A stretch of DNA of 25,838 nt from a virus (Duplodnaviria; Caudoviricetes), in IMG/VR virus record IMGVR_UViG_3300042315_000041, positions 1-25,838 of that record. One strand, written 5' to 3'. A program made the translations under genes and the position numbers. Position 1 is the stretch's first letter; each line of letters opens with the position of its first letter. The notes under the pieces are model-generated. The model was not told where the DNA came from, searched no databases, and saw only the letters and a list, made by a program, of their open reading frames with translations. Shown here piece by piece: positions 11,454 through 25,525 of this stretch.

Positions 11454-12716
11454 TCAGTTGAACATCAGCACGCCAGCCATTTCGGGCTGCTTGCACACCA
11501 CACCGAAGAGGCAGTCCAATCGGTACTTGGTCTTCATGTTGTTGATGTCGTACTGCTTCGTCATGACCAGTTCGATACCCTGATCCGTGCTCGCGCGCAT
11601 CACGGCCGCACCGGCATCTGTCGGCACCGCATAGCGACCCGGCAAAAGCTCGATGGCGTCCTTGTGCCAGAAGCAGTTCAGGTACGAGGCCGTCGTGTTC
11701 AGGAACGTGATCGCGGCGGTTGCCGAGGTCGAGGTGATCCGGCAGTTCTGGTACTGCGCGGTCGAATCGACACCGGCCTGCGCCGGGATCAGCGGGGGGC
11801 TGATCACGAGCGTCGTGGCCGACGGCACGGCGATCACGCGGAACGTCTTGGGCTGGCCCGTGTCTTCCTTGGTGATCATGTGCACGGCGTTGACGTTGGC
11901 AATCGTGAACGAGTCGCCCACCGCGATGCTGGTGGTCGAGTTGACCGTCACCGTCTGGAAGCGGTTGTCCACGTTGCTCGTCTCGCCCGTGGCCGAGGTC
12001 GAGGTGGCCTTCGGGGTGTAGTAGTTCCCGCCCGCTGCCGTCGTGTTGATCTGAATGCCGGCACCCGCCGCAGCAGCCTTGCGCTGGGCGTAGTCCAGCT
12101 TGTACGTCTCGAACGAGGCGACCTGGCCCACGAACGCCCGACGCAGCGCGCTGTCGGAGATGTCGTTGCCGAAGCTGCGGGTGTTCTTGGCGAGGTCGCT
12201 GGCCATGCCGTTGTAGTCGCGCGTCGAGAGCGCGAGATACCGGCTGTCCATCGGAACGCCCGTCTCGTTCATCACCGCCTCGACAAGCGCCACATCATCG
12301 AAGCCAGTGGCGGCCGAACGCTTGATCGCCAGCGTCCCCTGCTGGCCTGCGACGGTCAGCACGGCGACGTTGATGTCAGAGGCCAGCTTCTGCTTGGCGG
12401 CATCGCCCAGGCGACCCTCTTGCAGCGCATCACGCAGCTCGGTGGCCGACATGATCCACGGCACCGACTTCTGGTAGCCGATGGTCGCGGGAACGGTGAG
12501 CTGGGTGTAGTCGTCGAAGTTGCCCGTCATGTCCGTGCCGTTGTACGACACAGCGATGTAGGGCATCGGACGCCAGATGACGTTGTTGGTCCGCTCCATC
12601 ATCGTCTGGTCGGTGTTGTAGACCGAGACGTTGCGGGACAGTACGAGGGCGTCTTGGAAGCCTGCAAGCAGGTCTTCAAACGCGACGCGCTCTTCCTTTG
12701 AGAAGGCGTTGGCCAT
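11454..12716 (-). CDS. Major capsid protein, P22 gp5 coat family
   Basis: 420 aa; MANAFSKEERVAFEDLL, IWRPMPYIA, AAKQKLASDIN, C-terminal RLDCLFGV...PEMAG; follows scaffold. Confidence 0.9.
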   Translation of the reverse strand: MANAFSKEERVAFEDLLAGFQDALVLSRNVSVYNTDQTMMERTNNVIWRPMPYIAVSYNGTDMTGNFDDYTQLTVPATIGYQKSVPWIMSATELRDALQEGRLGDAAKQKLASDINVAVLTVAGQQGTLAIKRSAATGFDDVALVEAVMNETGVPMDSRYLALSTRDYNGMASDLAKNTRSFGNDISDSALRRAFVGQVASFETYKLDYAQRKAAAAGAGIQINTTAAGGNYYTPKATSTSATGETSNVDNRFQTVTVNSTTSIAVGDSFTIANVNAVHMITKEDTGQPKTFRVIAVPSATTLVISPPLIPAQAGVDSTAQYQNCRITSTSATAAITFLNTTASYLNCFWHKDAIELLPGRYAVPTDAGAAVMRASTDQGIELVMTKQYDINNMKTKYRLDCLFGVVCKQPEMAGVLMFN

Positions 12717-12857
12717 TGGTGGCTCCTAATTCGGAATGAGTGAACGATTGCGGCTACTGCCGCGCCTGCTTACTCACCCGGTCGGAGTCGGGCGGCCACT
12801 CGTGATCTGGTCGCTACTGCCACTTGAGGGCTGGCGAAACCCGGTGCGATTGGGCCG

Positions 12858-12890
12858 AATATAACACGGCCCGTGGGTTCGTCAAGCCCT
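12858..12890 (-). promoter_or_regulatory. Candidate coat gene promoter
   Basis: Minus strand TTGACG-16 nt-TATATT with extended -10 TG and a CACGG-G-CCGTG dyad in the spacer. Confidence 0.55.
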
Positions 12891-13799
12891 CGCCTGCGCC
12901 TTCGCCGCCAGTTGCCGTTTGTACGCCACGACCTTCGTCATGTCGCCCGTGCGGGACGCCTCCTCGCGCAGCCTCTCCAGCGTCGTATCTGACCCGCCGC
13001 TGACGGGTGCGGTGCCTGCCGGCAGGCTGCGCTCGGGCGCGGGGGGCTTGGTTCGGGGTGTGACTTTCAATTGTGCCTCCAGTTTGGCGACGGCAAATGC
13101 GAACTTCACCGGGTCGGTGAGGGCGGCCAGTTCCTTGGCCTTCTTCGGGTTCTTGCCCAGCGCGTAGACGACGAGCGCGGGGTTCTCCGCGCCCTGCAGC
13201 ACGACGCCCTGCTGGGTAACGTTCAGCGTCTCCATGACCGTGTGCTCGGCCTCGTCGTAGTCGCGCACCTTGAGCTCGACCTTCGCCTTGCCGTACCCGT
13301 CGAGCTTGGCCTGCCACGCCTTCTGCGCCTCTTCGGCCTGGCGCTGCGCCTCGCGCTCGGCCTTATCAGCCGTGGCCTTCTGGGCGTACCACGACTCCAG
13401 CGCCGTCTCGTATCGGTCGGTGTCGTAGTCGTGGTCTTCGAGCTTGGGCTTCGGGCCGACAGTGGGCCGTGCGGCCGGCGCGGCCTGCTCCTTGGCCTCG
13501 TACTCGCGCACCTTCTTCTGCAGTTCGCGGTGCTGCTTGCGCAGGTCGCGCACCCACTCAGGGGCGGCGCGTTCCTCGTCCTCGGCTGGCGGGGCATCGT
13601 CTCCGATGCTGACCGTCACCTCGTCGGGTTCGGGTGCGGCGGCTGCAGGGGCATCAGCCTGGGGAGACGGGTCAGGCGTGTCTGGTGCGCCCTGAGCCGC
13701 CGCAACCTGCTCGCCCTCGTCTGCCTCGGGCGTGTCCTCGTTGCCCTCATGCACCTCTTGCGTGCCATCGGGCTGCGTTACTTCGATCCTGATTCCCAT
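12882..13799 (-). CDS. Scaffolding protein, P22 gp8-like
   Basis: Between portal and coat. Acidic disordered N-terminus, coiled coil, PKPKLEDHDYD, C-terminal helix-turn-helix LERLREEASRTGDMTKVVAYKRQL like the P22 coat-binding domain. Confidence 0.8.
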   Translation of the reverse strand: MGIRIEVTQPDGTQEVHEGNEDTPEADEGEQVAAAQGAPDTPDPSPQADAPAAAAPEPDEVTVSIGDDAPPAEDEERAAPEWVRDLRKQHRELQKKVREYEAKEQAAPAARPTVGPKPKLEDHDYDTDRYETALESWYAQKATADKAEREAQRQAEEAQKAWQAKLDGYGKAKVELKVRDYDEAEHTVMETLNVTQQGVVLQGAENPALVVYALGKNPKKAKELAALTDPVKFAFAVAKLEAQLKVTPRTKPPAPERSLPAGTAPVSGGSDTTLERLREEASRTGDMTKVVAYKRQLAAKAQARA

Positions 13800-13855
13800 C
13801 CGTCTTCCCTCTCGGCTGATGCGGTCAGCCGGCAACCGTTCGGCACCGTGCCGAT

Positions 13856-15895
13856 TCAGAGTTCAGGTCGCGGCGGCGTCTGCTCGGGCAGGCCGATCAT
13901 CTTCACCGCGTCCATCGCCATGCGGGTCTGATCCATGTCAATCTTGGAAACCGTCTCGAGCGTCTTCGCCCGCGCCAGCTCGCTGTCTGCGACGGTCTTG
14001 ACCACGCCTGCACGGGCCTGCGCGGCCTTGGCGAGCGCTTCCTCGGCGGCGGCCTGTAGGAACACCGCATTCGGGTCGGGCTGTGCTCCAGCCTGGGCCA
14101 TCTGTGCGGCCTCCTCCTCGGTCGGCTTCACCACGCCCATCTGCACCAGCTGCTTGCGGAAGAACTCGGAAATCTCGCTCAGGCCCTCGCCTTCCATGTT
14201 CATGAGCGCCGCAGCCTGCAGCACGCGCTGTGCCTCGGGGTCTTGCGTCACGGCCATCATCTGCGTGAGGGCGCGAACCGTCGCGGCACGCTTGCTGCTC
14301 GAGGACGGGCCGACCTCGACGGCGACATCGAACTCGGCCTCTGAGAGATCGTTCTCGTGCTCGAGTTCGCCCTCGTCGTTCACCATCGGGCGCATCAGTT
14401 CGATACTCGACATCTGGCCCTGCGACCCGATGCCCTTCATCTTCCGGCCAGGCTCTGCGTACACCTCGCGGGCCATGCCGAGCCAGACCTCGCCGGCACG
14501 GCGCACGGCCTTGGCGTAGTTCGACATGTAGATGAACGTCTGCATGTCCAGGCGCTGCTGGACCATTTCGACGGCCTTGCCGCTGACGTTGGCGACGATC
14601 TTGTCGCCCTGCTCCTGATTCCCGAGGACGTCTTTCATGTCCTGCTCGGTGATCTGCAGGAGCGCCGCCATCGCGGGCGGGATCTGAGGGGACTTCGTGT
14701 AGGCCAGCGGTCCAGCAGCCTGTGCGCTGCCGTCAGGCCCCGTGATCGGGTTGATGAGCAGGTACGGGTAATTGCGCAGGTTGTCGTCCTGCCACATCAC
14801 TTGGTGGCCGGCGACCTGCTCGGGGGTCAGGATGGGCTTCTCGACGCTCGAGAGCGCGGCGATCTCGGCCAGCTTCGACCGCTGCATGTTCGCCAGGCGC
14901 TGGGCGTCTTTCGCCAGCCTGACATGCCCCGCGCAGCGCTCCACGTTGTCGATGAACCAGCGGCGGCCGTAGACCGGAACGACAGGGATGTGCTTGCCGG
15001 CGATGAAACCGGAGTCCTCGAGCACCTTCGCGCCGCTCAGGACATACTTTCGCACCCGCTGACGCTTCATGCGCTTCTGTCGAACCTCGACAGAACCGAC
15101 TGCCTCGAGCTGCGCCAGCATCTCATCGTCCAGCTCGCTGTCCCGGTAGCGCTCCTCCTCGCCGTCGAGGCTGCGAAATATGCGCACGGTTTCGGACACC
15201 ATCTCGGCGCGGAAATACTCGGCCACGTACACGACGTCAGGCGTGAGCCAGTCAAACTCGTACTGATGGATTTCCTTCGGCCAGCTTGCCGGGTCATCCC
15301 CGTACTCGGCCTTGTACGCCTCGCGGGTCATGCTCGTGAGCACGAAGCACCGTTTCGCGTCGGCCTTGTCCTGGCGCTTGGCCTGGAGATCGAAGAACAC
15401 GCTGCTGTCCGCGTCGAAGATCGGCTCGATGCGGATGCGCTGGCGCTCGTCCTCGTCGTCCTCCTCGTTCTCGTAGGCCGTGCGCAGCCGGAACGCACCG
15501 AAACCGCCGCCGACAGCCTCCTCGAAGGCGTTGTCGTAGGCTTCCTCGGCCCCGCTGTCCTGCTCGTCGGCCCGGTACAGGTCGTCGCAGGTGTCTGCGA
15601 GTCCGTCGTATTCCTTGCCTTCCTTGGACACGAAGTCCACGGTGACGCGGTTGGCGCGGTACTCGCTGAAGATGCGCTGCACAGCCAACGCGATCTTGTT
15701 CACCTCGAGTTTCGGCTTGTTCTCGAACTGCGCCCCGAGCGGGCCTTCCCACTGCGCCCCGGCGATTGAATAAAATCGTCGGTCAGCCAAACATTGTGTT
15801 CTTTCGTCACGAAGTGCCGATTGAATATTATCAAATTCACGCATCGCCTCTTCGTGCACCTGCGCAAGTTGCTGCTCTTTAGTTGGTCTTGCCAT
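13856..15895 (-). CDS. Portal protein, P22 gp1-like
   Basis: 679 aa from ATG 15895 with AAGGA RBS; DRRFYSIAGAQWEG, EEAVGGGFGAFRL, HIPVVPVYG, GHVRLAKDAQRLANMQ; helical C-terminal barrel. Confidence 0.9.
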   Translation of the reverse strand: MARPTKEQQLAQVHEEAMREFDNIQSALRDERTQCLADRRFYSIAGAQWEGPLGAQFENKPKLEVNKIALAVQRIFSEYRANRVTVDFVSKEGKEYDGLADTCDDLYRADEQDSGAEEAYDNAFEEAVGGGFGAFRLRTAYENEEDDEDERQRIRIEPIFDADSSVFFDLQAKRQDKADAKRCFVLTSMTREAYKAEYGDDPASWPKEIHQYEFDWLTPDVVYVAEYFRAEMVSETVRIFRSLDGEEERYRDSELDDEMLAQLEAVGSVEVRQKRMKRQRVRKYVLSGAKVLEDSGFIAGKHIPVVPVYGRRWFIDNVERCAGHVRLAKDAQRLANMQRSKLAEIAALSSVEKPILTPEQVAGHQVMWQDDNLRNYPYLLINPITGPDGSAQAAGPLAYTKSPQIPPAMAALLQITEQDMKDVLGNQEQGDKIVANVSGKAVEMVQQRLDMQTFIYMSNYAKAVRRAGEVWLGMAREVYAEPGRKMKGIGSQGQMSSIELMRPMVNDEGELEHENDLSEAEFDVAVEVGPSSSSKRAATVRALTQMMAVTQDPEAQRVLQAAALMNMEGEGLSEISEFFRKQLVQMGVVKPTEEEAAQMAQAGAQPDPNAVFLQAAAEEALAKAAQARAGVVKTVADSELARAKTLETVSKIDMDQTRMAMDAVKMIGLPEQTPPRPEL

Positions 15896-16634
15896 TTTGC
15901 GATTCCTTACAATTGGCAAAATGCCAACGTTTCATGAGAGATTGGCCGCCTTGTTTTTTGCAATGCGGACACTCTACCTTTGGCTGCACGCCTTTTGGAA
16001 CGCGTAATTTTAACTTTTGATCTTCAGTAAGTTTCTTGCCCTTGTTTGACAAAACGAAGGCTTGATACTGTTTTTCGTTTAACTTTTTGCCCTTGTTCAC
16101 GGCAAGTTTTTGTCGCAACTCAGGCGTGTAGTCTATGGCTTGCCGCGCGCGTGCCATTGCATTTTTATGGCTCTCTGTCTTCGGCTTTCCCTTCAGTGCG
16201 TCAGACAGTTTTGCTCGTGTCTCGGCGCTTACACCTGCCGCCCTTCTGGCTGCATGCAACTTTTTTACAGCCTGATCTGATAATTTCCGGCCGGTATTAG
16301 CAATCGAAATTTTCTTTCTGGCTTCGGTTGACAATTTCAAGCCGATTTGAGCTTCTGCTCTTTTCCTTCGTAACCACCCAAATTTTTTGTTATTGCGCCA
16401 CTTGCCTTGGGTCATTCCCCATGCCGCAAAAACTAATTTTTGATTTTCTGGATGCAGTTTTACTAGCAACTGATGCGCTACGAAATGTTCCTCAGGTGTT
16501 AGCAACACAAGATTGTTTTTGTCATCACCTCCACCCATGCATTTCGGCACAACGTGGTGTCTCTCAACGTATCCGATGATCTCTCGAGACCTCGCTCGAC
16601 CGATCAGGGCTTCGTAGTGGGACTTGTAATCCAT
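15879..16634 (-). CDS. HNH homing endonuclease with NUMOD3-type repeats
   Basis: YVERHHVVPKCMGG.D..NLVLLTPEEHFVAHQLL; repeats LSTEARKKISIANTG and SAETRAKLSDALKGKPK; terminal CPHC..WHF.NC; much more AT-rich than flanks. Confidence 0.9.
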   Translation of the reverse strand: MDYKSHYEALIGRARSREIIGYVERHHVVPKCMGGGDDKNNLVLLTPEEHFVAHQLLVKLHPENQKLVFAAWGMTQGKWRNNKKFGWLRRKRAEAQIGLKLSTEARKKISIANTGRKLSDQAVKKLHAARRAAGVSAETRAKLSDALKGKPKTESHKNAMARARQAIDYTPELRQKLAVNKGKKLNEKQYQAFVLSNKGKKLTEDQKLKLRVPKGVQPKVECPHCKKQGGQSLMKRWHFANCKESQNGKTN

Positions 16635-16639
16635 GCCCG

Positions 16640-16668
16640 ATTATGCTACGCGAGGCGTTCGGTGTCTA
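16640..16668 (-). promoter_or_regulatory. Candidate promoter giving a leaderless HNH transcript
   Basis: Minus strand TAGACA-17 nt-CATAAT, then 5 nt, then ATG; no SD. Confidence 0.5.
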
Positions 16669-17898
16669 TCGCCAGCGGTGGGCGGTGGGAAGGACGAGGC
16701 CAGGATCATGCGCAGGCCGGTTCGCCTTGGCCGCGCGGCGCGCGCCTTCGCAGGCATATCGCAGGGCGTCGATCACGTGGTTTTTCTTGTCCTGCAGCAC
16801 CGGCAGCACCTTGCCAGTCAGCGGGTCGGTCTTGAAGCTGTAGTGCGTCAGCTCGTCAATCGTGTGCAGGCACCTCGGATGCACCACGATGTCGTAGGAC
16901 TTGAGCCACTCGACGCCTTCCTCAACGGACTTCGGCCCCTTCACGGCTGGCATGATCTTCGGAAACCCGTGCCGGCGCATGTGGCTGATCGTCTCGGGCC
17001 TGGATGAGTCGCCAACCATCGGCCACTTCTCTGCCTCGGGCACGGTCATGAACAAGTCAGGCGTGCTCGTGATCTCGCAGCCGACCATGTACGCCTCGTG
17101 GTCGATGTACAGCGTGCGGCCGAAGATGTGGCAGCGCACAAGCACTGTCGGGTCGGTAGCGAAACCCCAGTCTGCGCCCAGCCGGTGGATCGCATCGCGC
17201 GGAGCCTCGAACTCCTCAACGCGCCAGTTCTTGAACACTCGCGCGCTGCTGTTCTGCACGTAGCCGCCGCGCCATACGTGGGCGTACTTGTCCGGGTCTC
17301 GGCCCAGGTCGTACTCCATCTCGGCCCGCAGAACGTCCGGGAACCAGGGATTCTGGTCGAAGTTCACCTGCAGCACCACGGCATCCGGTGGCGGCTTCGG
17401 GCCGCGCAGCAGGTGATCCACTGGATCACTCGACAGATTCGGGTTCCACGTAAACCACAGCTCCGAGCCAGGCTTGCGGATCGTTGGCCGCAGCAGGTCC
17501 AGGCTGCGCTGGCTCAGGCTCTGCGCCTCCTCCACCCAGGCGCGGTCGTAGCCCTCCAGCGACTTGATCGAGTCGGCCGTGTGGTTCTGCATGCCCTGAA
17601 AGATCAGCAGGCCATCTCCGCGCACGGACTTGATGACTGCCTCTTGAACCTCGAAGTACGCGCCCGCGTTCAGGGATTCGATCTTGAGCTCGAGCAGGCG
17701 CTTCACCGACTGGGCCAGCGACTTCTGCACCTCGCGCACGCAAACCGAGCGGCTGCTCGGGTCCATCAGGTGCGCCTCGATCATCATCTCCGCGAACGTG
17801 TGGGACTTGCCAGAACCGCGCCCGCCGTGCGCACCCTTGTACCGGGACGGCTTCAGCAGCGGCTCGGCCCAGCTGGGGGTCTGGATTCTCAGTTCCAT
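16666..17898 (-). CDS. terL: Terminase large subunit (PBSX/SPP1-like family)
   Basis: Walker A GGRGSGKS, CVREVQKS, IKSLEG, Walker B AWVEEA, TIRKPGSELWFTWNP, nuclease GADWGF..DP, NHVIDALRYA. Confidence 0.95.
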   Translation of the reverse strand: MELRIQTPSWAEPLLKPSRYKGAHGGRGSGKSHTFAEMMIEAHLMDPSSRSVCVREVQKSLAQSVKRLLELKIESLNAGAYFEVQEAVIKSVRGDGLLIFQGMQNHTADSIKSLEGYDRAWVEEAQSLSQRSLDLLRPTIRKPGSELWFTWNPNLSSDPVDHLLRGPKPPPDAVVLQVNFDQNPWFPDVLRAEMEYDLGRDPDKYAHVWRGGYVQNSSARVFKNWRVEEFEAPRDAIHRLGADWGFATDPTVLVRCHIFGRTLYIDHEAYMVGCEITSTPDLFMTVPEAEKWPMVGDSSRPETISHMRRHGFPKIMPAVKGPKSVEEGVEWLKSYDIVVHPRCLHTIDELTHYSFKTDPLTGKVLPVLQDKKNHVIDALRYACEGARRAAKANRPAHDPGLVLPTAHRWR

Positions 17899-17904
17899 CG
17901 TGGA

Positions 17905-18288
17905 TTACTTGACGATTTCCCGCACGATTTTCGTGATGGATTCTCCGACCTGATGCGTGGTTTCGATTTTCTCGCCGTATTTCTTAGGCGCGAGTTTCGC
18001 GGCGCGCCATTGATATGCGCTCAATACTACGCGAGCTGCATGCGGGTCCATTTCTCCGTTTTCTACTCGCTCAGCCACGGACAGAATCTTCTCGTCCATT
18101 ACCTCGGCCTGGAGTTCCCTCGCGCGCGCGCACCTGTGTGAGAAGTCCGGGTCGTCCTTCTGCCAATCCATCACAGCCCAGATGCTCGGCATACGCTTGT
18201 CACGGCAGACGGATCGCATCGACTCGCCTTCGCTGATGCGCTTGACGATCTCGTCCATGACTTCGGGGGTCTTGCGGCTGGCTGGCAT
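17905..18288 (-). CDS. terS: Terminase small subunit (Sf6 gp1-like HTH)
   Basis: TPEVMDEIVKRISEGESMRSVC...MPS...W...PDF...ARARE...WRAAKLAPKKYG; directly upstream of terL. Confidence 0.85.
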   Translation of the reverse strand: MPASRKTPEVMDEIVKRISEGESMRSVCRDKRMPSIWAVMDWQKDDPDFSHRCARARELQAEVMDEKILSVAERVENGEMDPHAARVVLSAYQWRAAKLAPKKYGEKIETTHQVGESITKIVREIVK

Positions 18289-18315
18289 GTTTGCTCCAAA
18301 AGTTAGTGACCACTC

Positions 18316-18411
18316 AGGGGAGGGTAGGGGAGGGTCATCCTATTCCACGGGTATCGCGTGCGCGTGCGCGTGTGACGTATGAAACCGAACAAGTATCCCC
18401 TACCCTCCCCT
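18316..18411. repeat. 16 bp perfect inverted repeat flanking an alternating purine-pyrimidine tract; candidate replication origin
   Basis: AGGGGAGGGTAGGGGA (18316-18331) and TCCCCTACCCTCCCCT (18396-18411), with CGCGTGCGCGTGCGCGTGTG between them. Confidence 0.7.
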
Positions 18412-18423
18412 AAACCGAAAATG

Positions 18424-20760
18424 TTAGGGTAAACCCTGATTTCTGGCCTTTTCCGTTGCGTTCAGGTCGATGCCCTTCAGAGTCATGATCCCGGACATCT
18501 TAACCTTGCGCAGCCCAGAAACCAGGGTCATCTTCTCGCCCCACACCGTCTGCGAAGGCTCGTGCTCGCCGCGAGACTGCTTCCAGCGCCTGAACGATGC
18601 GTAGAGGTCTGACGATCTGGCGTGCGTTCCTGCGTCGATTTTGCAGCACTCCTCGATCCACATTGCGATGTCATCGTGCTCGGCCATGTAGTCCCGGCTG
18701 GCGTCCTCGACCTTACCTGGGATGGCTAGTCCGTCTGCATACCACTTGCGTGCGCCCTCAATCGCCCAGGCCATGATCCCAGGCGCTTCGGCTTTCAGCT
18801 TCTCGGGCAGCTTGGCATCCTTGGCTGCGCCTTCGAATTTCTGCAGAAACGGCAGCAGCACCATGCGACGAGCCATCGCAGGGTCTCCACCCTTCAAGCG
18901 CGGCTTGTGGTTCCCGGCGATCAGGTGCTTGTGCGACATCGTGAACGTGAAGTTGTCCTGACGCATGAACCGAGCCGTTAGCGTCTCGTCCCCGGTGAGT
19001 TCCTTAATCCGCGCCTCGGCCCAGAAACTGCCCTCCTCGAGCTCGTTGCTGACAGCTAGGCGCTTGCCGTGAAGCTGGGCAAGTTCGGTCGGATGCCGCT
19101 CGTTCCTGCTCGCCATCAGCGCAGTGGTTGGCAGTTTGAGGGCGTAAGAGCCCATCATCCACATGAGAATGTCGAGCAGCGTAGATTTTCCGTTACTGCC
19201 CTGACCGTGCGCGAAAAACAGTTTCTGCTCGCGTCTGTCGCCGGACAGACAATACCCACACATCCTCTGCACAAACTCTATTGTATCAATATCGTCTGCG
19301 AACACTTGTGATATGAACCGGAGCCAGTTCTCTGTCGGTTGCTGAGTATCTGGAGATACCCGAGAAATCTGCGTCAGATACTGCCCACGATTACGCTCGT
19401 GGAGTTTGCCGGTGCGTAGATCAACGATCCCTGCCGGGGTGTTGATCATCAGCGGATCGCTGTCCCACTGAGCGGCCGGAACCACGATAGCCGGGTCAGA
19501 CTGCGCTAGGAACAGAAGCGCGTTGACGGTCTTTGCGCTGGTAATGGCCTTGCGGATTTTCGCGTCGGCAAGCTGCGCTGATGCACGAGCGGTGCGCCTA
19601 GCAAGGTCGAACCGAATCAGGTGTTCGTCTCGCTTCCAGTGTGTGCCATCATCGTGCATCCAGCCAAGGCCTGGAGACCACCTCAAGCCGGCCCCGTACT
19701 GCGCAACGAACTCCAGCGCAAGCGAGTCGTCCGAGAACTCGGGCGGCAGTGCTTCGACCTCTCCGGTCTCGGGGTCGATGATTTCGGTGGCTTGTGGCGG
19801 TGCGGGCAGGGCCGGTGGCGTTCGCGTGGCGACCGGAGCCCACACCGATGCCCGATTAATCGCCCAGGCCCTGAAGTCCTGCCACGAACTAAATCCCGCG
19901 TCGGCCGCATCCGATCCGTCAGGCTGGCCCGATACGTCCAGCACCTTGACCTCGGCCGCATCCCCGGCGATGATCTGTGCCACACGTTGCATGGCCTTTT
20001 TGCCAGGCTCATCTGCGTCCGGCCACAAGAGCACCTTGCGTCCCTTGAGCGGCGTCCAATCGGCTTTGTCCACCGCCATCGCGCCTGCGGGCCATGTGAC
20101 CACCGCATAAGGCGTGGCAAACCCACGCGCGGCGTCTGCGGCTTTCTCTCCCTCGACCACCAGCACGGCGGCATTGGGACGAGCCGCGAGTTCCTGCAGC
20201 CCGTACAGCGGCCTCGGCGCGGGCCACTGGCCCATGCCCCAGGCGTCTCCGTCCCATGTCCAAGGGATGATCTGCTTTCGGTCGCCTGCAGGGTCGTAAC
20301 GTGCGACGTAGCCCAGCACCTCGCCGTTGCCGTCGAAGTACGTCCAGCGGTGCGATGGCTGCCCGAATCGCGGATGCACACAGGCGCAGTCTGCGATGGC
20401 TTCCGGGACCGGCGTCACGACGCGCCGAGCTGGTTCCGAAGGCGGCGGCGGTCGGTGCGTTCCGTTGACGCTAGCAGCCGGCTTGGATTCCCCGCCGAGC
20501 TGCTTGTAGGCGTCGCCCATCTGCAGGCCGTGGATGGCCGCGTACAGACTGATTAGGTCGCTGCCGTGGTCGCCCGTGGCGAAGTCCGACCATGCGCCGT
20601 TGGACAGGTTGATCTTGAGCGACTGACCGGAAGCCCCGCTTAGGTCTCCAGCCACCCATGCGGTTCCGCGTTTGCGGCCTCCGGGTAGCCAGGATGCGAG
20701 GTGAGATTCAGCCGATGCGAGCAGTTGACGGGCCAGGCCGTCGAAGTCGAGGCCGGCCAT
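18424..20760 (-). CDS. Primase-helicase fusion: TOPRIM primase plus D5/P4-type SF3 helicase
   Basis: VLVVEGEKAADA and LLWPDAD (TOPRIM); GQGSNGKST Walker A, IKELTGDETLTARFM, GNHKP, AMARRM (D5-like SF3). Confidence 0.9.
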   Translation of the reverse strand: MAGLDFDGLARQLLASAESHLASWLPGGRKRGTAWVAGDLSGASGQSLKINLSNGAWSDFATGDHGSDLISLYAAIHGLQMGDAYKQLGGESKPAASVNGTHRPPPPSEPARRVVTPVPEAIADCACVHPRFGQPSHRWTYFDGNGEVLGYVARYDPAGDRKQIIPWTWDGDAWGMGQWPAPRPLYGLQELAARPNAAVLVVEGEKAADAARGFATPYAVVTWPAGAMAVDKADWTPLKGRKVLLWPDADEPGKKAMQRVAQIIAGDAAEVKVLDVSGQPDGSDAADAGFSSWQDFRAWAINRASVWAPVATRTPPALPAPPQATEIIDPETGEVEALPPEFSDDSLALEFVAQYGAGLRWSPGLGWMHDDGTHWKRDEHLIRFDLARRTARASAQLADAKIRKAITSAKTVNALLFLAQSDPAIVVPAAQWDSDPLMINTPAGIVDLRTGKLHERNRGQYLTQISRVSPDTQQPTENWLRFISQVFADDIDTIEFVQRMCGYCLSGDRREQKLFFAHGQGSNGKSTLLDILMWMMGSYALKLPTTALMASRNERHPTELAQLHGKRLAVSNELEEGSFWAEARIKELTGDETLTARFMRQDNFTFTMSHKHLIAGNHKPRLKGGDPAMARRMVLLPFLQKFEGAAKDAKLPEKLKAEAPGIMAWAIEGARKWYADGLAIPGKVEDASRDYMAEHDDIAMWIEECCKIDAGTHARSSDLYASFRRWKQSRGEHEPSQTVWGEKMTLVSGLRKVKMSGIMTLKGIDLNATEKARNQGLP

Positions 20761-20762
20761 TC

Positions 20763-20999
20763 TCAGACCTCGCCGTCGATGTCCGCGTTTGCGCGCTCCG
20801 TGAGGATCTGCTCGCGCTGCATGATGAGCCGCGTCACAGCCACGACATCGGCCCCCGTAAAGTCTCGCACTCGACTTTGCAGGAGCATCTTCTTCGCCAT
20901 GTCCAGCGAATCGCCTACTTGCACCAGCGCGTCGTGCCAGTGGCTTTCCCCGCGCAGGTTCTTCAGCGCAAGGTCGAAAGGATGCGTATCAGGGTTCAC
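20763..20999 (-). CDS. Hypothetical protein
   Basis: GTG start with GAGGTG RBS; 78 aa; abuts the primase gene. Confidence 0.7.
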   Translation of the reverse strand: MNPDTHPFDLALKNLRGESHWHDALVQVGDSLDMAKKMLLQSRVRDFTGADVVAVTRLIMQREQILTERANADIDGEV

Positions 21000-21027
21000 G
21001 TTTTCACCTCACAAACAAACAGACGGA

Positions 21028-21092
21028 CGGGCCGGAACGTCATCCGGCCCGCTTATAGTATAGCCCGCTCATGCGGGCGGTCGTCAAGCCCT
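21028..21092 (-). promoter_or_regulatory. Candidate replication-operon promoter plus 5' hairpin
   Basis: TTGACG-19 nt-TATACT with GCCCGC-ATGA-GCGGGC dyad in the spacer, followed by CGGGCCGGA-N6-TCCGGCCCG (21028-21051). Confidence 0.5.
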
Positions 21093-21471
21093 ACCAGGGC
21101 ACATCATCGTCCATGCTATCGAACCCGGTTCCGCTCGATGCACGCGGCGCAGTCTCCCGAGCCCTGCGCTCCGCGATGGCCTGAGCGTCCCTCTCGGCCT
21201 GAGACGGACGCCTCGGTGCGGCCGGTGCCGGCGCTGCCGCAGGAGCCGGCGCAGGCGCAGCGGCGGGGTAAGAGGCATCCTTGGGCTGAACGCTGAGGGA
21301 CATGTACTTCTGCCCCTCGAGCTTCGTGCCCTCGCGTCCCTCCTTAATCCAGGCCGACAGCCAGTATTCAACCCCGGCCACGTTGATTGAGCCACGGTAG
21401 TCGGGGCGGGATTCGTTGCCCTGCTTGTCGTTGCGGGTGAGCATGCCCCGGTTGGTGTTGTCGTAGTTCAT
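21091..21471 (-). CDS. Putative single-stranded DNA-binding protein
   Basis: RPDYRGSINVAGVEYWLSAW...YMSLSV beta core, Pro/Ala linker, SSB-like acidic tip MDDDVPW. Confidence 0.6.
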   Translation of the reverse strand: MNYDNTNRGMLTRNDKQGNESRPDYRGSINVAGVEYWLSAWIKEGREGTKLEGQKYMSLSVQPKDASYPAAAPAPAPAAAPAPAAPRRPSQAERDAQAIAERRARETAPRASSGTGFDSMDDDVPW

Positions 21472-21483
21472 GCGATGGTCTCC

Positions 21484-22362
21484 TCAGAATTCACCTGCTG
21501 CCGGGAACAGATCAAGATGTGTCCCGTACAGCTTCGACATGGGATTGCCTTGCAGGAAATTGCTCAAGGCGCTCATGGTCTTGTTGTACGTTTCCTCGCG
21601 CACCGACGGACTGCTGGCCCCGCGCAGTGAGCGTGTGAAGTCGCGCAGCCGTATTGCCGCCGATTCGTGCTCACCTCGCACAATCCCCGTGCGCAGCACC
21701 TCCATGAACCTTTGAATCTTGTCCCTGTCTTGCGAGTATGCGGCCTTCGCACACACAGCCAAAACAGCAGAGCTCATGCCGGCAGTCTTGCGAGTTCCAG
21801 AACACACGAAATCAACAACATCGGCGTGATCTTGGTAAGCATCCAGCAGCTCATTGAATGACTTGGAGCCCTGATCTCTCGGGCCGTACCTGATCAGGCG
21901 CGCCACGCCGGCCTTGCGGCTCTCGAGCTCTGCTCCGAGAAAATTCGCCACATCGTTGATCGTGCGAGTCAGTCCGCGATCCATTGCCGCAATCGTTTCG
22001 CGCGGCACGTTTCGGGCCACCAGCAGCTCCTGTTGGCGTCCGCTGCGAACGATGGCGTTGAGTGTGTGCTGACCGTTTCCAAGAGCGCCCGTCTCAAGGA
22101 AGCAGATTGCCACGGGCTTACGTTCCCAATGGAGTGTCTCCATGTCCCGCGCATACTGCGCCACAGTTGGCTCGCGCAGGCGACGGTTGCCCGTGTTCTG
22201 TTCCAGCCACTTCTTCGCAAGCGCCGGGGTCACGATTTCGACCGTCAGCGTCATCTGTCCATACTGAAGCATACGTCTCTCCTCATGATGCGGCGTCTCT
22301 GCCGCTATCTGTGCCGCCACTATCTCGGCAGCCCTAGCCCTAATCGCCGTCATGTCGATCAT
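21484..22362 (-). CDS. ParB/Srx-superfamily (DGQHR-like) protein
   Basis: VTPALAKKWLEQNTGNRRL...YARDM...W...GNGQHTLNAI...MDRGLTRT matches the phage ParB-N-like pattern. Confidence 0.65.
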   Translation of the reverse strand: MIDMTAIRARAAEIVAAQIAAETPHHEERRMLQYGQMTLTVEIVTPALAKKWLEQNTGNRRLREPTVAQYARDMETLHWERKPVAICFLETGALGNGQHTLNAIVRSGRQQELLVARNVPRETIAAMDRGLTRTINDVANFLGAELESRKAGVARLIRYGPRDQGSKSFNELLDAYQDHADVVDFVCSGTRKTAGMSSAVLAVCAKAAYSQDRDKIQRFMEVLRTGIVRGEHESAAIRLRDFTRSLRGASSPSVREETYNKTMSALSNFLQGNPMSKLYGTHLDLFPAAGEF

Positions 22363-22582
22363 CTATGTCCTCTCTGCGCCTCTGGCGCGGTTGTGCGGGC
22401 CTGCGCCCGAGGTGAAACTGATGGCAGAAAGTGCAGTGGTATACCTGCCGAGACTTGCCGCGTCTGGTGCCACGCACGGCGACGAGCTGGGCCTGAGTGA
22501 ACGATGAAAAACTGACCTTACCATCGCACGCCGAAGCCCGGTACGTGTCGCGTGGCGAGTGCGCGGGCTGGTGGTCGCTCAC
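22340..22582 (-). CDS. Small putative Zn-binding protein
   Basis: GTG at 22582 after GGGGAG; C-D-G-K...VYHCTFCHQFHL. Confidence 0.65.
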   Translation of the reverse strand: MSDHQPAHSPRDTYRASACDGKVSFSSFTQAQLVAVRGTRRGKSRQVYHCTFCHQFHLGRRPAQPRQRRREDIDDRHDGD

Positions 22583-22629
22583 GGCTCCCCCGCACCGATA
22601 CGAACACGCGCTGTGCTCACGGCTCCCCC
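22577..22629. repeat. 15 bp direct repeat, 38 bp period
   Basis: GCTCACGGCTCCCCC at 22577-22591 and 22615-22629. Confidence 0.9.
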
Positions 22630-23111
22630 AGTATCTCAATCGCATCCTCCACCGACTGCACAATGCCAGCAACGCCGCCGTTGGCCTGACACGCGCCGAT
22701 GAGCATCTCCTGCTCGATGGTGCCCTTGCGCACACCGGGCCGCTTGCACTCCAGCAGGAACAGCCGCCCATCGGTGAGCTGCCCGAGGTAATCGCTTGCG
22801 CCGCGCGTGATGCCAGACATGCCGCGCATGTACAGCCGATAGAACACCGTGTAGCGATCCCCGTCCTGCACCGCGCCAGAGTTCAGGCGCATGAACCACG
22901 CCACGCGCCGATGCACCCGCAGCAGGTCGAACACTGCGCGCATGACGTCGGCTTCAGTGGCGTCTGTGCTGGGCTGGCGTTTGGCTCGAGGTTTTGGAGG
23001 CGGCGGCGCGGTGAGCTCGACCCGTGGCCGGTCACTGAGTGCGGCGTAGAGGTCCATGCTCGCCTGGTTGCGGGCGATGGTTTCGCGGAGGGTTTCGCGG
23101 CGGCGGGTCAT
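22617..23111 (-). CDS. VRR-NUC (PD-(D/E)XK) nuclease, probable Holliday junction resolvase
   Basis: ATGA-coupled start at 23111; TEADV...RLNSG...GASDYLG..DGRLFLLECKRPG...EQ...GGVAGIVQSVEDA. Confidence 0.85.
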   Translation of the reverse strand: MTRRRETLRETIARNQASMDLYAALSDRPRVELTAPPPPKPRAKRQPSTDATEADVMRAVFDLLRVHRRVAWFMRLNSGAVQDGDRYTVFYRLYMRGMSGITRGASDYLGQLTDGRLFLLECKRPGVRKGTIEQEMLIGACQANGGVAGIVQSVEDAIEILGEP

Positions 23112-24920
23112 GCGAGATGCTCCGCGATACGCCGACCGATCCACCGCACCACCGGCACCGCCCAGGAGTTGCCGAGGGCCTTGTAGCGCGGGCCGTCGGG
23201 GCACTCGCTTGCGGGCTTCTTGCGCCACGGGATGGCGGTGTAGCCGTCAGGGAAACCTTGCAAGCGCTCGCACTCGACGGGGGTTAGGCGGCGCACTTGC
23301 ATGGACACAGGTGGCAGCACGCACGCACCCTCGCCGCCGGCATCACGGCGCAGGCAGTTTGCAAGGTCATCGCCAACCTTGGGAGTCGTGTCGTCTTGGA
23401 CGAAGACCGCCGCCGTCGCACACCCTTGCCCGTTGCCGGTGCCGATGGCGTGGCAAACATCGGTGTTGCTGATCGGGTCTTGGGTGGGGTGGAAGGCGAT
23501 GTAGTTCTGCTGCTGCGCGCCAGCATCAGCTGCCAGCGCGCCGACCACCTGACCGTCGCCGCCGATCTGACGCACCTCGCTGCGGCTGTTCTGAGTGAAC
23601 GCCACCGCCACCCCCTGCGTAGCGTGCGTGTCCACGGTGTACGCCGTTCCGTCGTCGTTCCATCCGCGCCCGTTCTGGGCCTTGTTCATGGCGCGAACGT
23701 CCTGCAGTGCCACCGGCTGCATCACCACCGCGTGCTCCGCATTCGATCTTGCCAGCGTGTGGCACGGGTCACCGGGCTCGCGCGACTGCCGATTTACGGG
23801 CGCGGTGATGTTGAAGAAGTCGTAGGTGACCGGCTGCATCACCGCCGTCGTCGTGCTGTTCTCCACGCCGCTCGGGATGCGAGCGCGCAGGCTGCTGGAT
23901 AGGTCGGTGAGGCTCGCCACGCTGGCTGTGCCATCTGTGCCGTGGAGGGTGATGCCGACAGGCCCATCGAAGCCGCCCCCGATGGTAGGAATCAGCGTCT
24001 CCGATTCCGCATCCAGCCGCCGCTGCCCCCCCCGCGTTGAGGCACATGGAAACGACGGCGTGCTGGTCTACGCAGTTCTGCGTATACGCCACATCAGCAA
24101 GCACCTCACCATGCTGCGGCCCGGCTTCTGGCTTTCTGCCGATGGCGGCGCCCTTGATGCACCATGTCTGCTGAATTACTCCTCCGTCGCAGTCAAAGTC
24201 GGTTCCGAGGCCGCCGCCTGCAGTGCTGCGTGAAGGGATGGTGGGAGCGACTTTCCCCGCTTCTCTGCTCGGCGCAGAATCCCGGCGCACGCCGTCGAAC
24301 TCAAGAAGAACCGCTGCGGGATCGAACCCGTCTCGAGCACTTGCGACAACGAACACACGCTTGCGTCGTTGGGCCAGGCCGAAATATTGGGCATCCAAGA
24401 CGCGCCAGGCAACTGTTCTTTCGGGTCCAGCAACCACACCCGCGTCGGTCCACCCGGTCGCGGCCAGCGGGTCGATGGGGGTATCGCATCCAGCAAGCGC
24501 GGAGATGAAGCATCCGAAGGCGTTGTCGCGGGTTGAAAGGACTCCGGGCACGTTTTCCCAGAAGACGATGCACTCTGGTTCGCCTCGGGTTCGTCGAACA
24601 TCATCAATTGCATTTGCGATCTCGCAGAAGGTGAGCGACAGGTTTCCCCGCGCGTCGTCAAGGGACCGGCGCAGGCCGGCAACGCTGAAGGCTTGGCAGG
24701 GCGTGCCGCCGCAGAACACATCAGGTGCTTCGACCTCACCCAACCGGATGCGCGCTGGCAGCGTGGTCATGTCGCCCAGGTTTGGCACCTCTGGGTAGTG
24801 GTGGGCCAGCACCGCCGATGGGAACGGCTCAATTTCAGCCAGCCACGCCGCACGCCAACCAAGCGGATGCCACGCCACGCTGGCGGCTTCGATGCCGCTG
24901 CATACGCTGCCGAATCTCAC
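23108..24920 (-). CDS. C5 cytosine DNA methyltransferase, frameshifted at a G8 tract (24026-24033)
   Basis: GTG at 24920 with GGAGG. Motifs I (FGSVCSGIEA), IV (GGTPCQAFS), VI (WENVPG) and VIII (QRRKRVF) are in one frame; IX/X (RRLTPVECERLQGFPD...YKALGNS) are in another. Removing one G joins them into 603 aa. Confidence 0.9.
24176..24613 (-). CDS. Overlapping alternative-frame ORF inside the methyltransferase; putative beta polypeptide
   Basis: MQLMMFDE...SSGKTCPES...WPNDASVCSLSQVLETGSIPQRFFLSSTACAGILRRAEKRGKSLPPSLHAAL; pattern recalled from internal ORFs of dcm-type genes. Confidence 0.6.
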   Translation of the reverse strand: MQLMMFDEPEANQSASSSGKTCPESFQPATTPSDASSPRLLDAIPPSTRWPRPGGPTRVWLLDPKEQLPGASWMPNISAWPNDASVCSLSQVLETGSIPQRFFLSSTACAGILRRAEKRGKSLPPSLHAALQAAASEPTLTATEE

Positions 24921-25138
24921 CGATGGCCTCCCACAAACGCCACCGTCAGAAACACCCCAGCGTGCTGCAGTTTCACTAGCGCCGGGATGCCCCGCCTCCT
25001 CCAGTTCGCCACCCGCTGCGGGCCGCCGGCACCGAAACCGAGCCGTCGCGCCAGCGCAGTCGGGCCGCCGAGGTTGTCGATGATTTCGGAGTCGGGGTGC
25101 AGGCTCAGGCTGTGAGCCAGTGGGGGTGATATCGTCAT
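24917..25138 (-). CDS. Cro-like HTH transcriptional regulator
   Basis: DSEIIDNLGGPTALARRLGF...QRVANWRRRGIP; first gene of the leftward operon; TGA overlaps the MTase GTG. Confidence 0.75.
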   Translation of the reverse strand: MTISPPLAHSLSLHPDSEIIDNLGGPTALARRLGFGAGGPQRVANWRRRGIPALVKLQHAGVFLTVAFVGGHR

Positions 25139-25228
25139 GGGATACGACTGTAACACGGCGTGGATACGGATGGGAAGGGGTCGGCGCAGAGAGTCGCATA
25201 AATCCCTGCGATTCTGTCGGAATAGGGG

Positions 25229-25256
25229 TTGACGGGATAAACGGATCGTTTATAGT
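25229..25256 (+). promoter_or_regulatory. Rightward promoter with overlapping 17 bp palindromic operator
   Basis: TTGACG-16 nt-TATAGT; ATAAACG-GAT-CGTTTAT at 25237-25253. Confidence 0.7.
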
Positions 25257-25288
25257 TCACCCATCGACACACCAACTGGAGCAACGAG

Positions 25289-25525
25289 ATGAACGCAAAC
25301 CAACTCTTCCAAGACATCAACACCGGTTGCCTCACCGAGGTTGCCGAGGCCGCCACCTCTTACTACAGCGACATCCGCGGGTTGACCGTCCGTCAACAGT
25401 ACTTCATCTATCCCAACGGCACCATTGTGTGCCTAAACGCCGTCGACGGCGGCTACTACACCTCGGTTCTTGAGGATGACAACGAGGCCATCTTCCAGCA
25501 TACCTACCGCCGCTATTTCAACTAA
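25289..25525 (+). CDS. Hypothetical early protein
   Basis: GGAG RBS; first ORF downstream of the rightward promoter; 78 aa. Confidence 0.75.
   Translation: MNANQLFQDINTGCLTEVAEAATSYYSDIRGLTVRQQYFIYPNGTIVCLNAVDGGYYTSVLEDDNEAIFQHTYRRYFN

Follow-up and report, generated by a model that had tools for sequence, protein, structure and literature searches.

A G8 run takes a phage C5-methyltransferase gene out of frame: a real frameshift with an unproven switch function

Slippage in nucleotide runs of phage DNA-modification genes is already in print. The closest described cases are the A-run of the T2 agt gene, studied along with T4 rIIA (Gomez, Barrick, Waters 2025, PMC12633550), and a G run in the bpm methylase of phage BPP-1, which is cited in the same article. 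Run mutants of T2 and T4 were reported there to revert about 1000 to 10,000 times more than point mutants. In C. jejuni, G8 tracts mutate chiefly by insertion, while G11 is deletion-biased (PMC3401435). Two gene layouts known among the C5 methyltransferases are of interest as well. The catalytic gene of M.EcoHK31I encloses a further ORF read in a different frame (PMC2836561); M.AquI occurs naturally as two parts, divided within the variable region, and C5 methyltransferases complement as fragments (PMC3404938). In the literature searched, outside which most subscription journals lay, we found no G-run switch in a phage C5 methyltransferase.

The window, i.e., the whole stretch of DNA analysed here, is a 25,838-nt linear virus record of a phage; all coordinates below refer to it, and its features of interest are collected in Table 1. 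Its genes include P22-like head genes, those for a terminase and a primase, and, on the minus strand, an early operon. The phage also encodes RecE/RecT-like proteins, and no integrase, repressor or DNA polymerase was found among the 53 ORFs scanned. A divergent control region at 25150-25300, seen also in L322 (G001 12000-24500), has the small DNA-binding gene on one side and the RecE/RecT-like genes on the other; PHROGs detected no repressor or integrase around it. Besides, an HNH homing endonuclease gene of low G+C (15879-16634, minus strand) sits between the terminase and the portal gene, overlaps the portal start, and contains all three T6 runs of the window.

Table 1. Features around the G8 run, in window coordinates.
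Feature	Position	Strand	Remark
Small DNA-binding gene (phrog_8008), upstream	24917..25156	-	Stop overlaps methyltransferase start
C5-methyltransferase ORF as written (383 aa)	23769..24920	-	Catalytic N part to codon 298, then 85 off-frame residues
Nested ORF, 145 aa, +1 frame, inside catalytic part	24176..24613	-	Layout like M.EcoHK31I beta chain
Module of ~90 nt containing the run	23965..24056	-	Same as L084 save run length (G7); L002 has G7, flanks match
224-nt block, 99% common to the L085 (G003) methyltransferase, G8 included	23829..24052	-	
G8 run, one G above the in-frame allele of relatives	24026..24033	-	
Out-of-frame distal part (305 aa)	23108..24025	-	Short variable-region modules and motifs IX-X
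GGAG, 6 nt, then in-frame GTG 23728	23726..23738	-	Possible internal restart; chance possible
Endonuclease/resolvase-like gene (phrog_93, phrog_5702), downstream	22617..23111	-	Start overlaps methyltransferase stop

The methyltransferase gene starts with a GTG at 24920. At the break, the minus strand reads AAC GCG GGG GGG G CAG CGG, as a sequence-only reading of this DNA had stated; on the plus strand the run is a C8. Translation and Pfam search also confirmed its claim that the chain as written ends after 383 aa and lacks motifs IX and X. The frame is lost after codon 298 and continued in the +1 frame by the distal part; with G7 the two in-frame parts would make, as claimed, a protein of 603 aa. 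Coupling to the neighbouring genes was verified on both sides, with GTGA (24920-24917) at the start and ATGA (23111-23108) at the stop. Both parts match PF00145 above the Pfam cut-off, the N part at positions 3-163 and the C part at positions 270-323, the motif IX/X end. Taken together, the two parts have the features of a C5 methyltransferase, namely the catalytic Pro-Cys within motifs I-VIII, then a variable region and motifs IX-X. L027, a short relative that is intact, has a fold like that of M.HhaI, M.HaeIII and the DNMTs (E about 1e-6).

The distal part contains no stop and no second break. In comparison with L084, its 266 compared codons showed 40 synonymous and 7 non-synonymous changes, a pattern without decay. 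This undecayed state fits a recent break as well as ongoing use. Every other homopolymer in the window is shorter than the G8 run, and no run of at least 7 occurs in the 10,717 bases added by the complete 36-kb assembly. Still, such a run is not rare: a G or C run of at least 8 arose in 18% of 300 windows simulated with an order-3 Markov model.

Homopolymers are error-prone in sequencing, and the earlier reading had considered a sequencing error, with G7 as the real allele, or a null mutation as probable as a switch. We found parts of the stretch in 24 public runs, mostly labelled lake water and possibly from a single campaign; 13 of them contain half of the stretch or more. In each of the eight runs examined, a gap-free contig crosses the G run with no indel row there. 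Seven of these span the run by at least 31 bases on either side, and two of the seven may be the source of the window. G8 is also present in two other assemblies of the same phage, L086 and L083; the latter is complete at 36.4 kb and 100% identical to the window by BLAST, with 3 mismatches over the 1784 bases compared. No other run length was seen for this phage in the eight runs and two assemblies, all of them contigs, where rare alleles drop out. G8 is the dominant allele in this phage. Since it appears in separate contigs of all eight runs and in both further assemblies, an assembly error is excluded; it occurs, moreover, in one unrelated phage, and G7 was correctly assembled in other phages, so that an error of any kind is extremely improbable, short of one systematic fault common to all these data. 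A null mutation, on the other hand, fits the data at least as well as bet-hedging.

The same runs contain minor contigs that match the sister allele L084, at nine of nine listed positions in X6 and in X8 and at the five listed for X4. The view that X4 and X8 hold two strains both with G8 was dropped, as the minor contigs are of the L084 type and a one-base bubble may have been popped.

The length of the run does vary among relatives. A gapped pattern scan detected five viral contigs with the exact module, with G8 in L083, L086 and L085, and G7 in frame in L002 and L084. Over 92 nt, L084 differs from the window by a single base, the one in the run. The repeat length sets the reading frame: G7 is in frame and G8 is out of frame in otherwise identical module DNA. 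A check of allele lengths gave G8 throughout for this phage (eight of eight runs, in contigs rather than reads), with G7 found in relatives. Wider pattern scans brought the number of contigs with the module to 36. The run was at most 6 long in 25 of them, with spellings such as GCC GGC GGC, GCC GGG GGC or GCA GGA GGG; six had G7 in frame, four (from two phages) had G8 out of frame, and one had G8 in frame by way of an extra Lys codon. Runs of 9 or longer were found at the module site in none of the 36. Homologues thus keep the homopolymer only where they are closest to the window; the G7 and G8 copies are 90-99% identical to each other, which points to one branch and not to independent retention. 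Pattern scans of metagenome contigs and of genome contigs returned unrelated matches (14 of 14 and 25 of 25, respectively), and the latter gave no host lead.

The L085 contig belongs to a 60-kb phage that is otherwise unrelated and has little but pieces of the methyltransferase in common with the window. These pieces include the 224-nt block of Table 1, which probably moved between phages by recombination. The simplest reading is that G8 arose once and reached L085 in this way; two independent slips could also have produced it.

For a view of the whole gene family, we collected 305 loci. Whole genes, present in 247 of them, formed 185 clusters, 130 of which were found without regard to the module. 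The region after motif VIII is a mosaic of exchangeable modules. Pieces of 30 aa from the variable region were common to 0-17 of the 184 other clusters, compared to 120-180 for pieces of the core. The modules of the variable region are probably target-recognition modules; they may correspond to the target-recognition domains of the multispecific enzymes of Bacillus phages. Between 23100 and 24300, joints skipping 162-931 nt were seen in the runs X1-X8, so module arrangements vary among co-occurring phages.

The catalytic part, by comparison, carries a nested ORF in the +1 frame in 183 of the 185 clusters. Its frame was open in all 105 clusters that could be scored (80 lacked one of the two search motifs), compared to 17 expected. 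The nested protein had 2047 protein matches; it belongs to no Pfam family, matched no solved structure in sequence and profile searches, hit no NCBIfam model above cut-off, and when folded alone had a pLDDT of 52 (low confidence). The dmt gene of phage P1 carries the nested ORF as well, unannotated in NC_005856 and AF234172, and the ORF is also seen at 6714-7202 of L221. A tblastn search with it hit 532 plasmid records and 146 phage records. Among the matches listed were E. coli plasmids of about 76-97 kb, Dam-annotated and likely P1-like, and only the main gene or hypothetical proteins were named over the nested ORF. Neither this ORF nor the mosaic, many-module nature of the variable region is in the sequence-only reading. 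The nested ORF matters both to the annotation and to the expression of this methyltransferase family, P1 Dmt included.

In the window, the nested ORF ends 143 nt before the G run, and another stop follows at 24070-24068; with these two stops in between, the nested ORF is not fused to the distal part. In two other loci, L239 (G11, gene offset 810) and L175 (G9, offset 687), the run precedes the nested stop. There, the +1 state would extend the nested protein into the variable region and motifs IX-X, and the main chain would end early. In the database proteins P0003 and P0104 the catalytic N-terminus passes over into the nested frame, owing to a frameshift before the nested ORF that is either a true allele or an error of assembly. 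Further runs lie in the core, whose double coding means that one slip would upset both frames: L075 (G10), L227 (G7), L077 (C8) and L165 (G7 and C7).

We observed broken genes in 4 of 167 clusters, i.e., the 130 found without regard to the module and 37 held-out ones, the latter contributing none. Two are broken at runs behind the nested ORF (L066 at G11 and L175 at G9), one, L165, at its two core runs, and one, L105, at no long run. A further candidate, L173, was rejected as a broken gene: it has an intact methyltransferase followed, ~2 kb on, by a partial second copy with a deletion.

The expected number of runs was derived by resampling synonymous codons in 120 intact genes of the module-blind clusters (10 were skipped). 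In the first 70 codons of the variable region, G runs of at least 7 numbered 5 versus 3.0 expected (P 0.2), compared to 0 versus 4.9 in the distal modules and 2 versus 7.7 in the flanking genes. The relative contrast between the proximal zone and the others had a P of 0.004, and of 0.0002 once two broken genes were added, for a zone picked post hoc. Three of the five proximal runs belong to one module type. In the held-out set of 33 genes, which is small and underpowered, we counted 1 proximal run versus 1.05 expected, so the excess was not repeated. A raw count of G or C runs of at least 8 (4 in 117 kb of the gene, 0 in 351 kb of flank) was set aside, as it ignores that the protein is Gly-rich.

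Just behind the nested ORF, five more module sites have runs of G8-G11, in and out of frame. For example, L259 (G10, off) and L262 (G9, on) are 96% identical over 3 kb; the off-state L259 has, in addition, lost 15 nt close to the start of the gene, as relaxed selection would predict. The second run site, after EDQHAL/HIN (L259 versus L262, L274 and L313; L107; L066; offsets 705-843), was seen with G9 on, G10 off, G7 on and G11 off, and the off-frame GGALFVP behind it is alike in L107 and L262. With the module-biased loci counted, the genes out of frame at G8-G11 in this zone are those of the window, L085, L066, L239, L175 and L259. All six (five of them independent) are shifted by +1, into the frame of the nested gene (two-sided P about 0.06, computed by hand). 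The insertion bias of G8 tracts in C. jejuni implies that this direction needs no selection as far as short runs are concerned.

These observations bear on the possibility of an evolved contingency locus, in which the runs behind the nested ORF would be kept for turning methylation ON and OFF and for passing restriction or methyl-directed defences. The phage would then be OFF at present because its current host disfavours methylation or does not need it. The natural occurrence of the same module DNA with G7 (on) and with G8 (off), the G9-on/G10-off pair at a second site, the six out-of-frame genes in a single zone and the weaker depletion of runs there speak for it, as does the precedent of the T2 agt A-run, set against TgvAB and McrA/BC (PMC12633550). 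However, the run length was invariant in the contigs of eight runs, most homologues have no run, G7 and G8 are short, and the excess was defined post hoc, came largely from one module type and did not recur in the small held-out set. The case for an evolved switch is weak, and we regard such a switch as possible but doubtful. The phase-variable ON/OFF switch proposed from the sequence survives to the extent that a true homopolymer sets the frame and that an in-frame G7 allele exists; against it are the unvarying contigs, the 25 of 36 contigs without a long run and the unrepeated excess.

A still more speculative reading, which we consider unlikely, extends to the P1 Dmt family as a whole. The zone behind the nested gene would be a switch zone that leaves the enzyme ON, OFF (the window, L085, L066 and L259) or rewired into a two-chain enzyme (L239 and L175), with OFF modules crossing between unrelated phages by recombination. 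As for what the three states would consist of, an equally tentative suggestion is that ON is the full chain with its small partner, and that in the rewired state the nested protein gains the recognition modules and motifs IX-X.

The G8 allele could also be less than fully OFF. A C-terminal fragment started from GTG 23728, or a full-length chain made by slight +1 slippage, could complement the N part, giving a split enzyme, or one present at low dose, with a smaller set of specificities. The GTG is preceded at 6 nt by GGAG and lies 41 nt past the off-frame stop, but this GGAG comes from Ala-Glu codons and is a frequent sequence at 64% G+C. The complementation of C5 enzymes by fragments and the natural split of M.AquI are in favour; here, however, 85 foreign residues would be attached to the N fragment, and in M.SssI complementation fell when such tails were longer (PMC3404938). 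G8 is kept in two phages, and the two differences in the common block look synonymous in the distal frame when inspected by hand. A mild RNA structure follows the run (z -2.3), but the same structure follows the G7 alleles. Ribosomes making a classical -1 shift on G GGG GGG would enter a short dead frame; a programmed -1 frameshift at the run is ruled out, as it enters the wrong frame. All in all, we think residual activity of either kind quite improbable.

With modest confidence, we favour the view that G8 arose by slippage and is an OFF allele, able to revert, in a dispensable gene that shuffles its modules. Polymerase slippage in a G7 run would have added a G, and with the frame lost the methyltransferase is likely inactive. 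In C5 methyltransferases, motifs IX and X are needed for methylation; by this anatomy, a protein lacking both should be unable to methylate. The G run itself would be a by-product of the GCG GGG GGG codons in one branch, as most relatives spell the module without a run. The single origin of G8 would have been followed by its passage to L085, with recombination helped by the RecE/RecT-like genes. A slip back from G8 to G7 should be far likelier than the reversal of a point mutation, and the reversion of run mutants in T2 and T4 implies that the G8 allele would revert easily. Because of such easy slip-back, the locus, if under selection, would behave as a weak contingency locus without being shaped as one. 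G8 likely persists because the gene is dispensable and not because the run evolved as a switch, and its uniformity may be explained by a near-clonal lineage, given the few mismatches between the window and L083.

Several findings go against a revertible OFF allele of this kind. No decay is seen in the distal part (which a recent break would explain as well), two unrelated phages carry the broken allele, and a sister allele type, which may differ in run length, co-occurs in X4, X6 and X8, where contigs would hide minor alleles. In addition, the proximal zone is not depleted of G runs (the relative contrast being post hoc), and there are the five further G8-G11 sites and the G9-on/G10-off pair. 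By the loose definition of PMC12633550, the G8 locus is probably a putative contingency locus; it does not yet qualify under stricter criteria for phase variation, which include reversibility, rate and selection for both states (PMC11868660).

If G8 is a null allele, then a lake phage of many samples can spare its methyltransferase, and broken modules hitchhike between phages. If it is a true switch, phage contingency loci, so far linked to T-even glucosylation, would come to include cytosine methylation in the wild; allele frequencies could then be followed from raw reads of the many runs with this phage.

The closest likeness to a described system is with the A-run of T2 agt and with T4 rIIA, as studied by Gomez, Barrick and Waters (2025, PMC12633550), where a single base also slips in a run of one nucleotide within a phage DNA-modification gene; the trade-off between defence systems proposed for agt is a further likeness. 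There, however, the run is an A-run, and the authors measured how fast it reverts as well as the selection for either state, whereas the window offers a G run in a C5 methyltransferase and static alleles of different phages. The bpm gene of BPP-1 has, as the window does, a G8 in a phage DNA methylase gene. In the bpm record, however, the G8 is in frame, the annotation is adenine methylase, and the protein has no C5 motifs, which makes it an analogue and not a homologue; its G run reportedly goes back to Liu et al. 2004. Among the bacterial genes and methyltransferases that are phase-variable through simple sequence repeats, such as cj1139 (G8) and cj0031 (G9) of C. jejuni, the G8 length is a likeness, and the insertion bias of G8 tracts matches the +1 direction (PMC3401435). 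On the other hand, their rates were measured to be high and their modal length is nine, compared to a population that looks uniform and homologues mostly without a run in our case.

With respect to gene layout, phage P1 dmt aligns at 56.5% over 2-236 and has the same nested ORF. M.EcoHK31I, which we compared by the description of its layout, likewise has an additional ORF inside its catalytic gene, in a different frame (PMC2836561). Its beta chain is said there to carry motif IX, while here an IX-like RLTP..ERLQG is in the main frame, although the naming of motifs could differ; the window also has a long mosaic array as its variable region. The split of M.AquI lies in the variable region (PMC3404938), and L239 and L175 are AquI-like, with the distal part fused to the nested ORF. 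In the window, by contrast, two stops part the nested ORF from the distal part, and there is no second chain of that kind. The frameshift in the window is real and a switch function is unproven; judged from its sequence, the locus would be one more instance of slippage in a phage DNA-modification gene.
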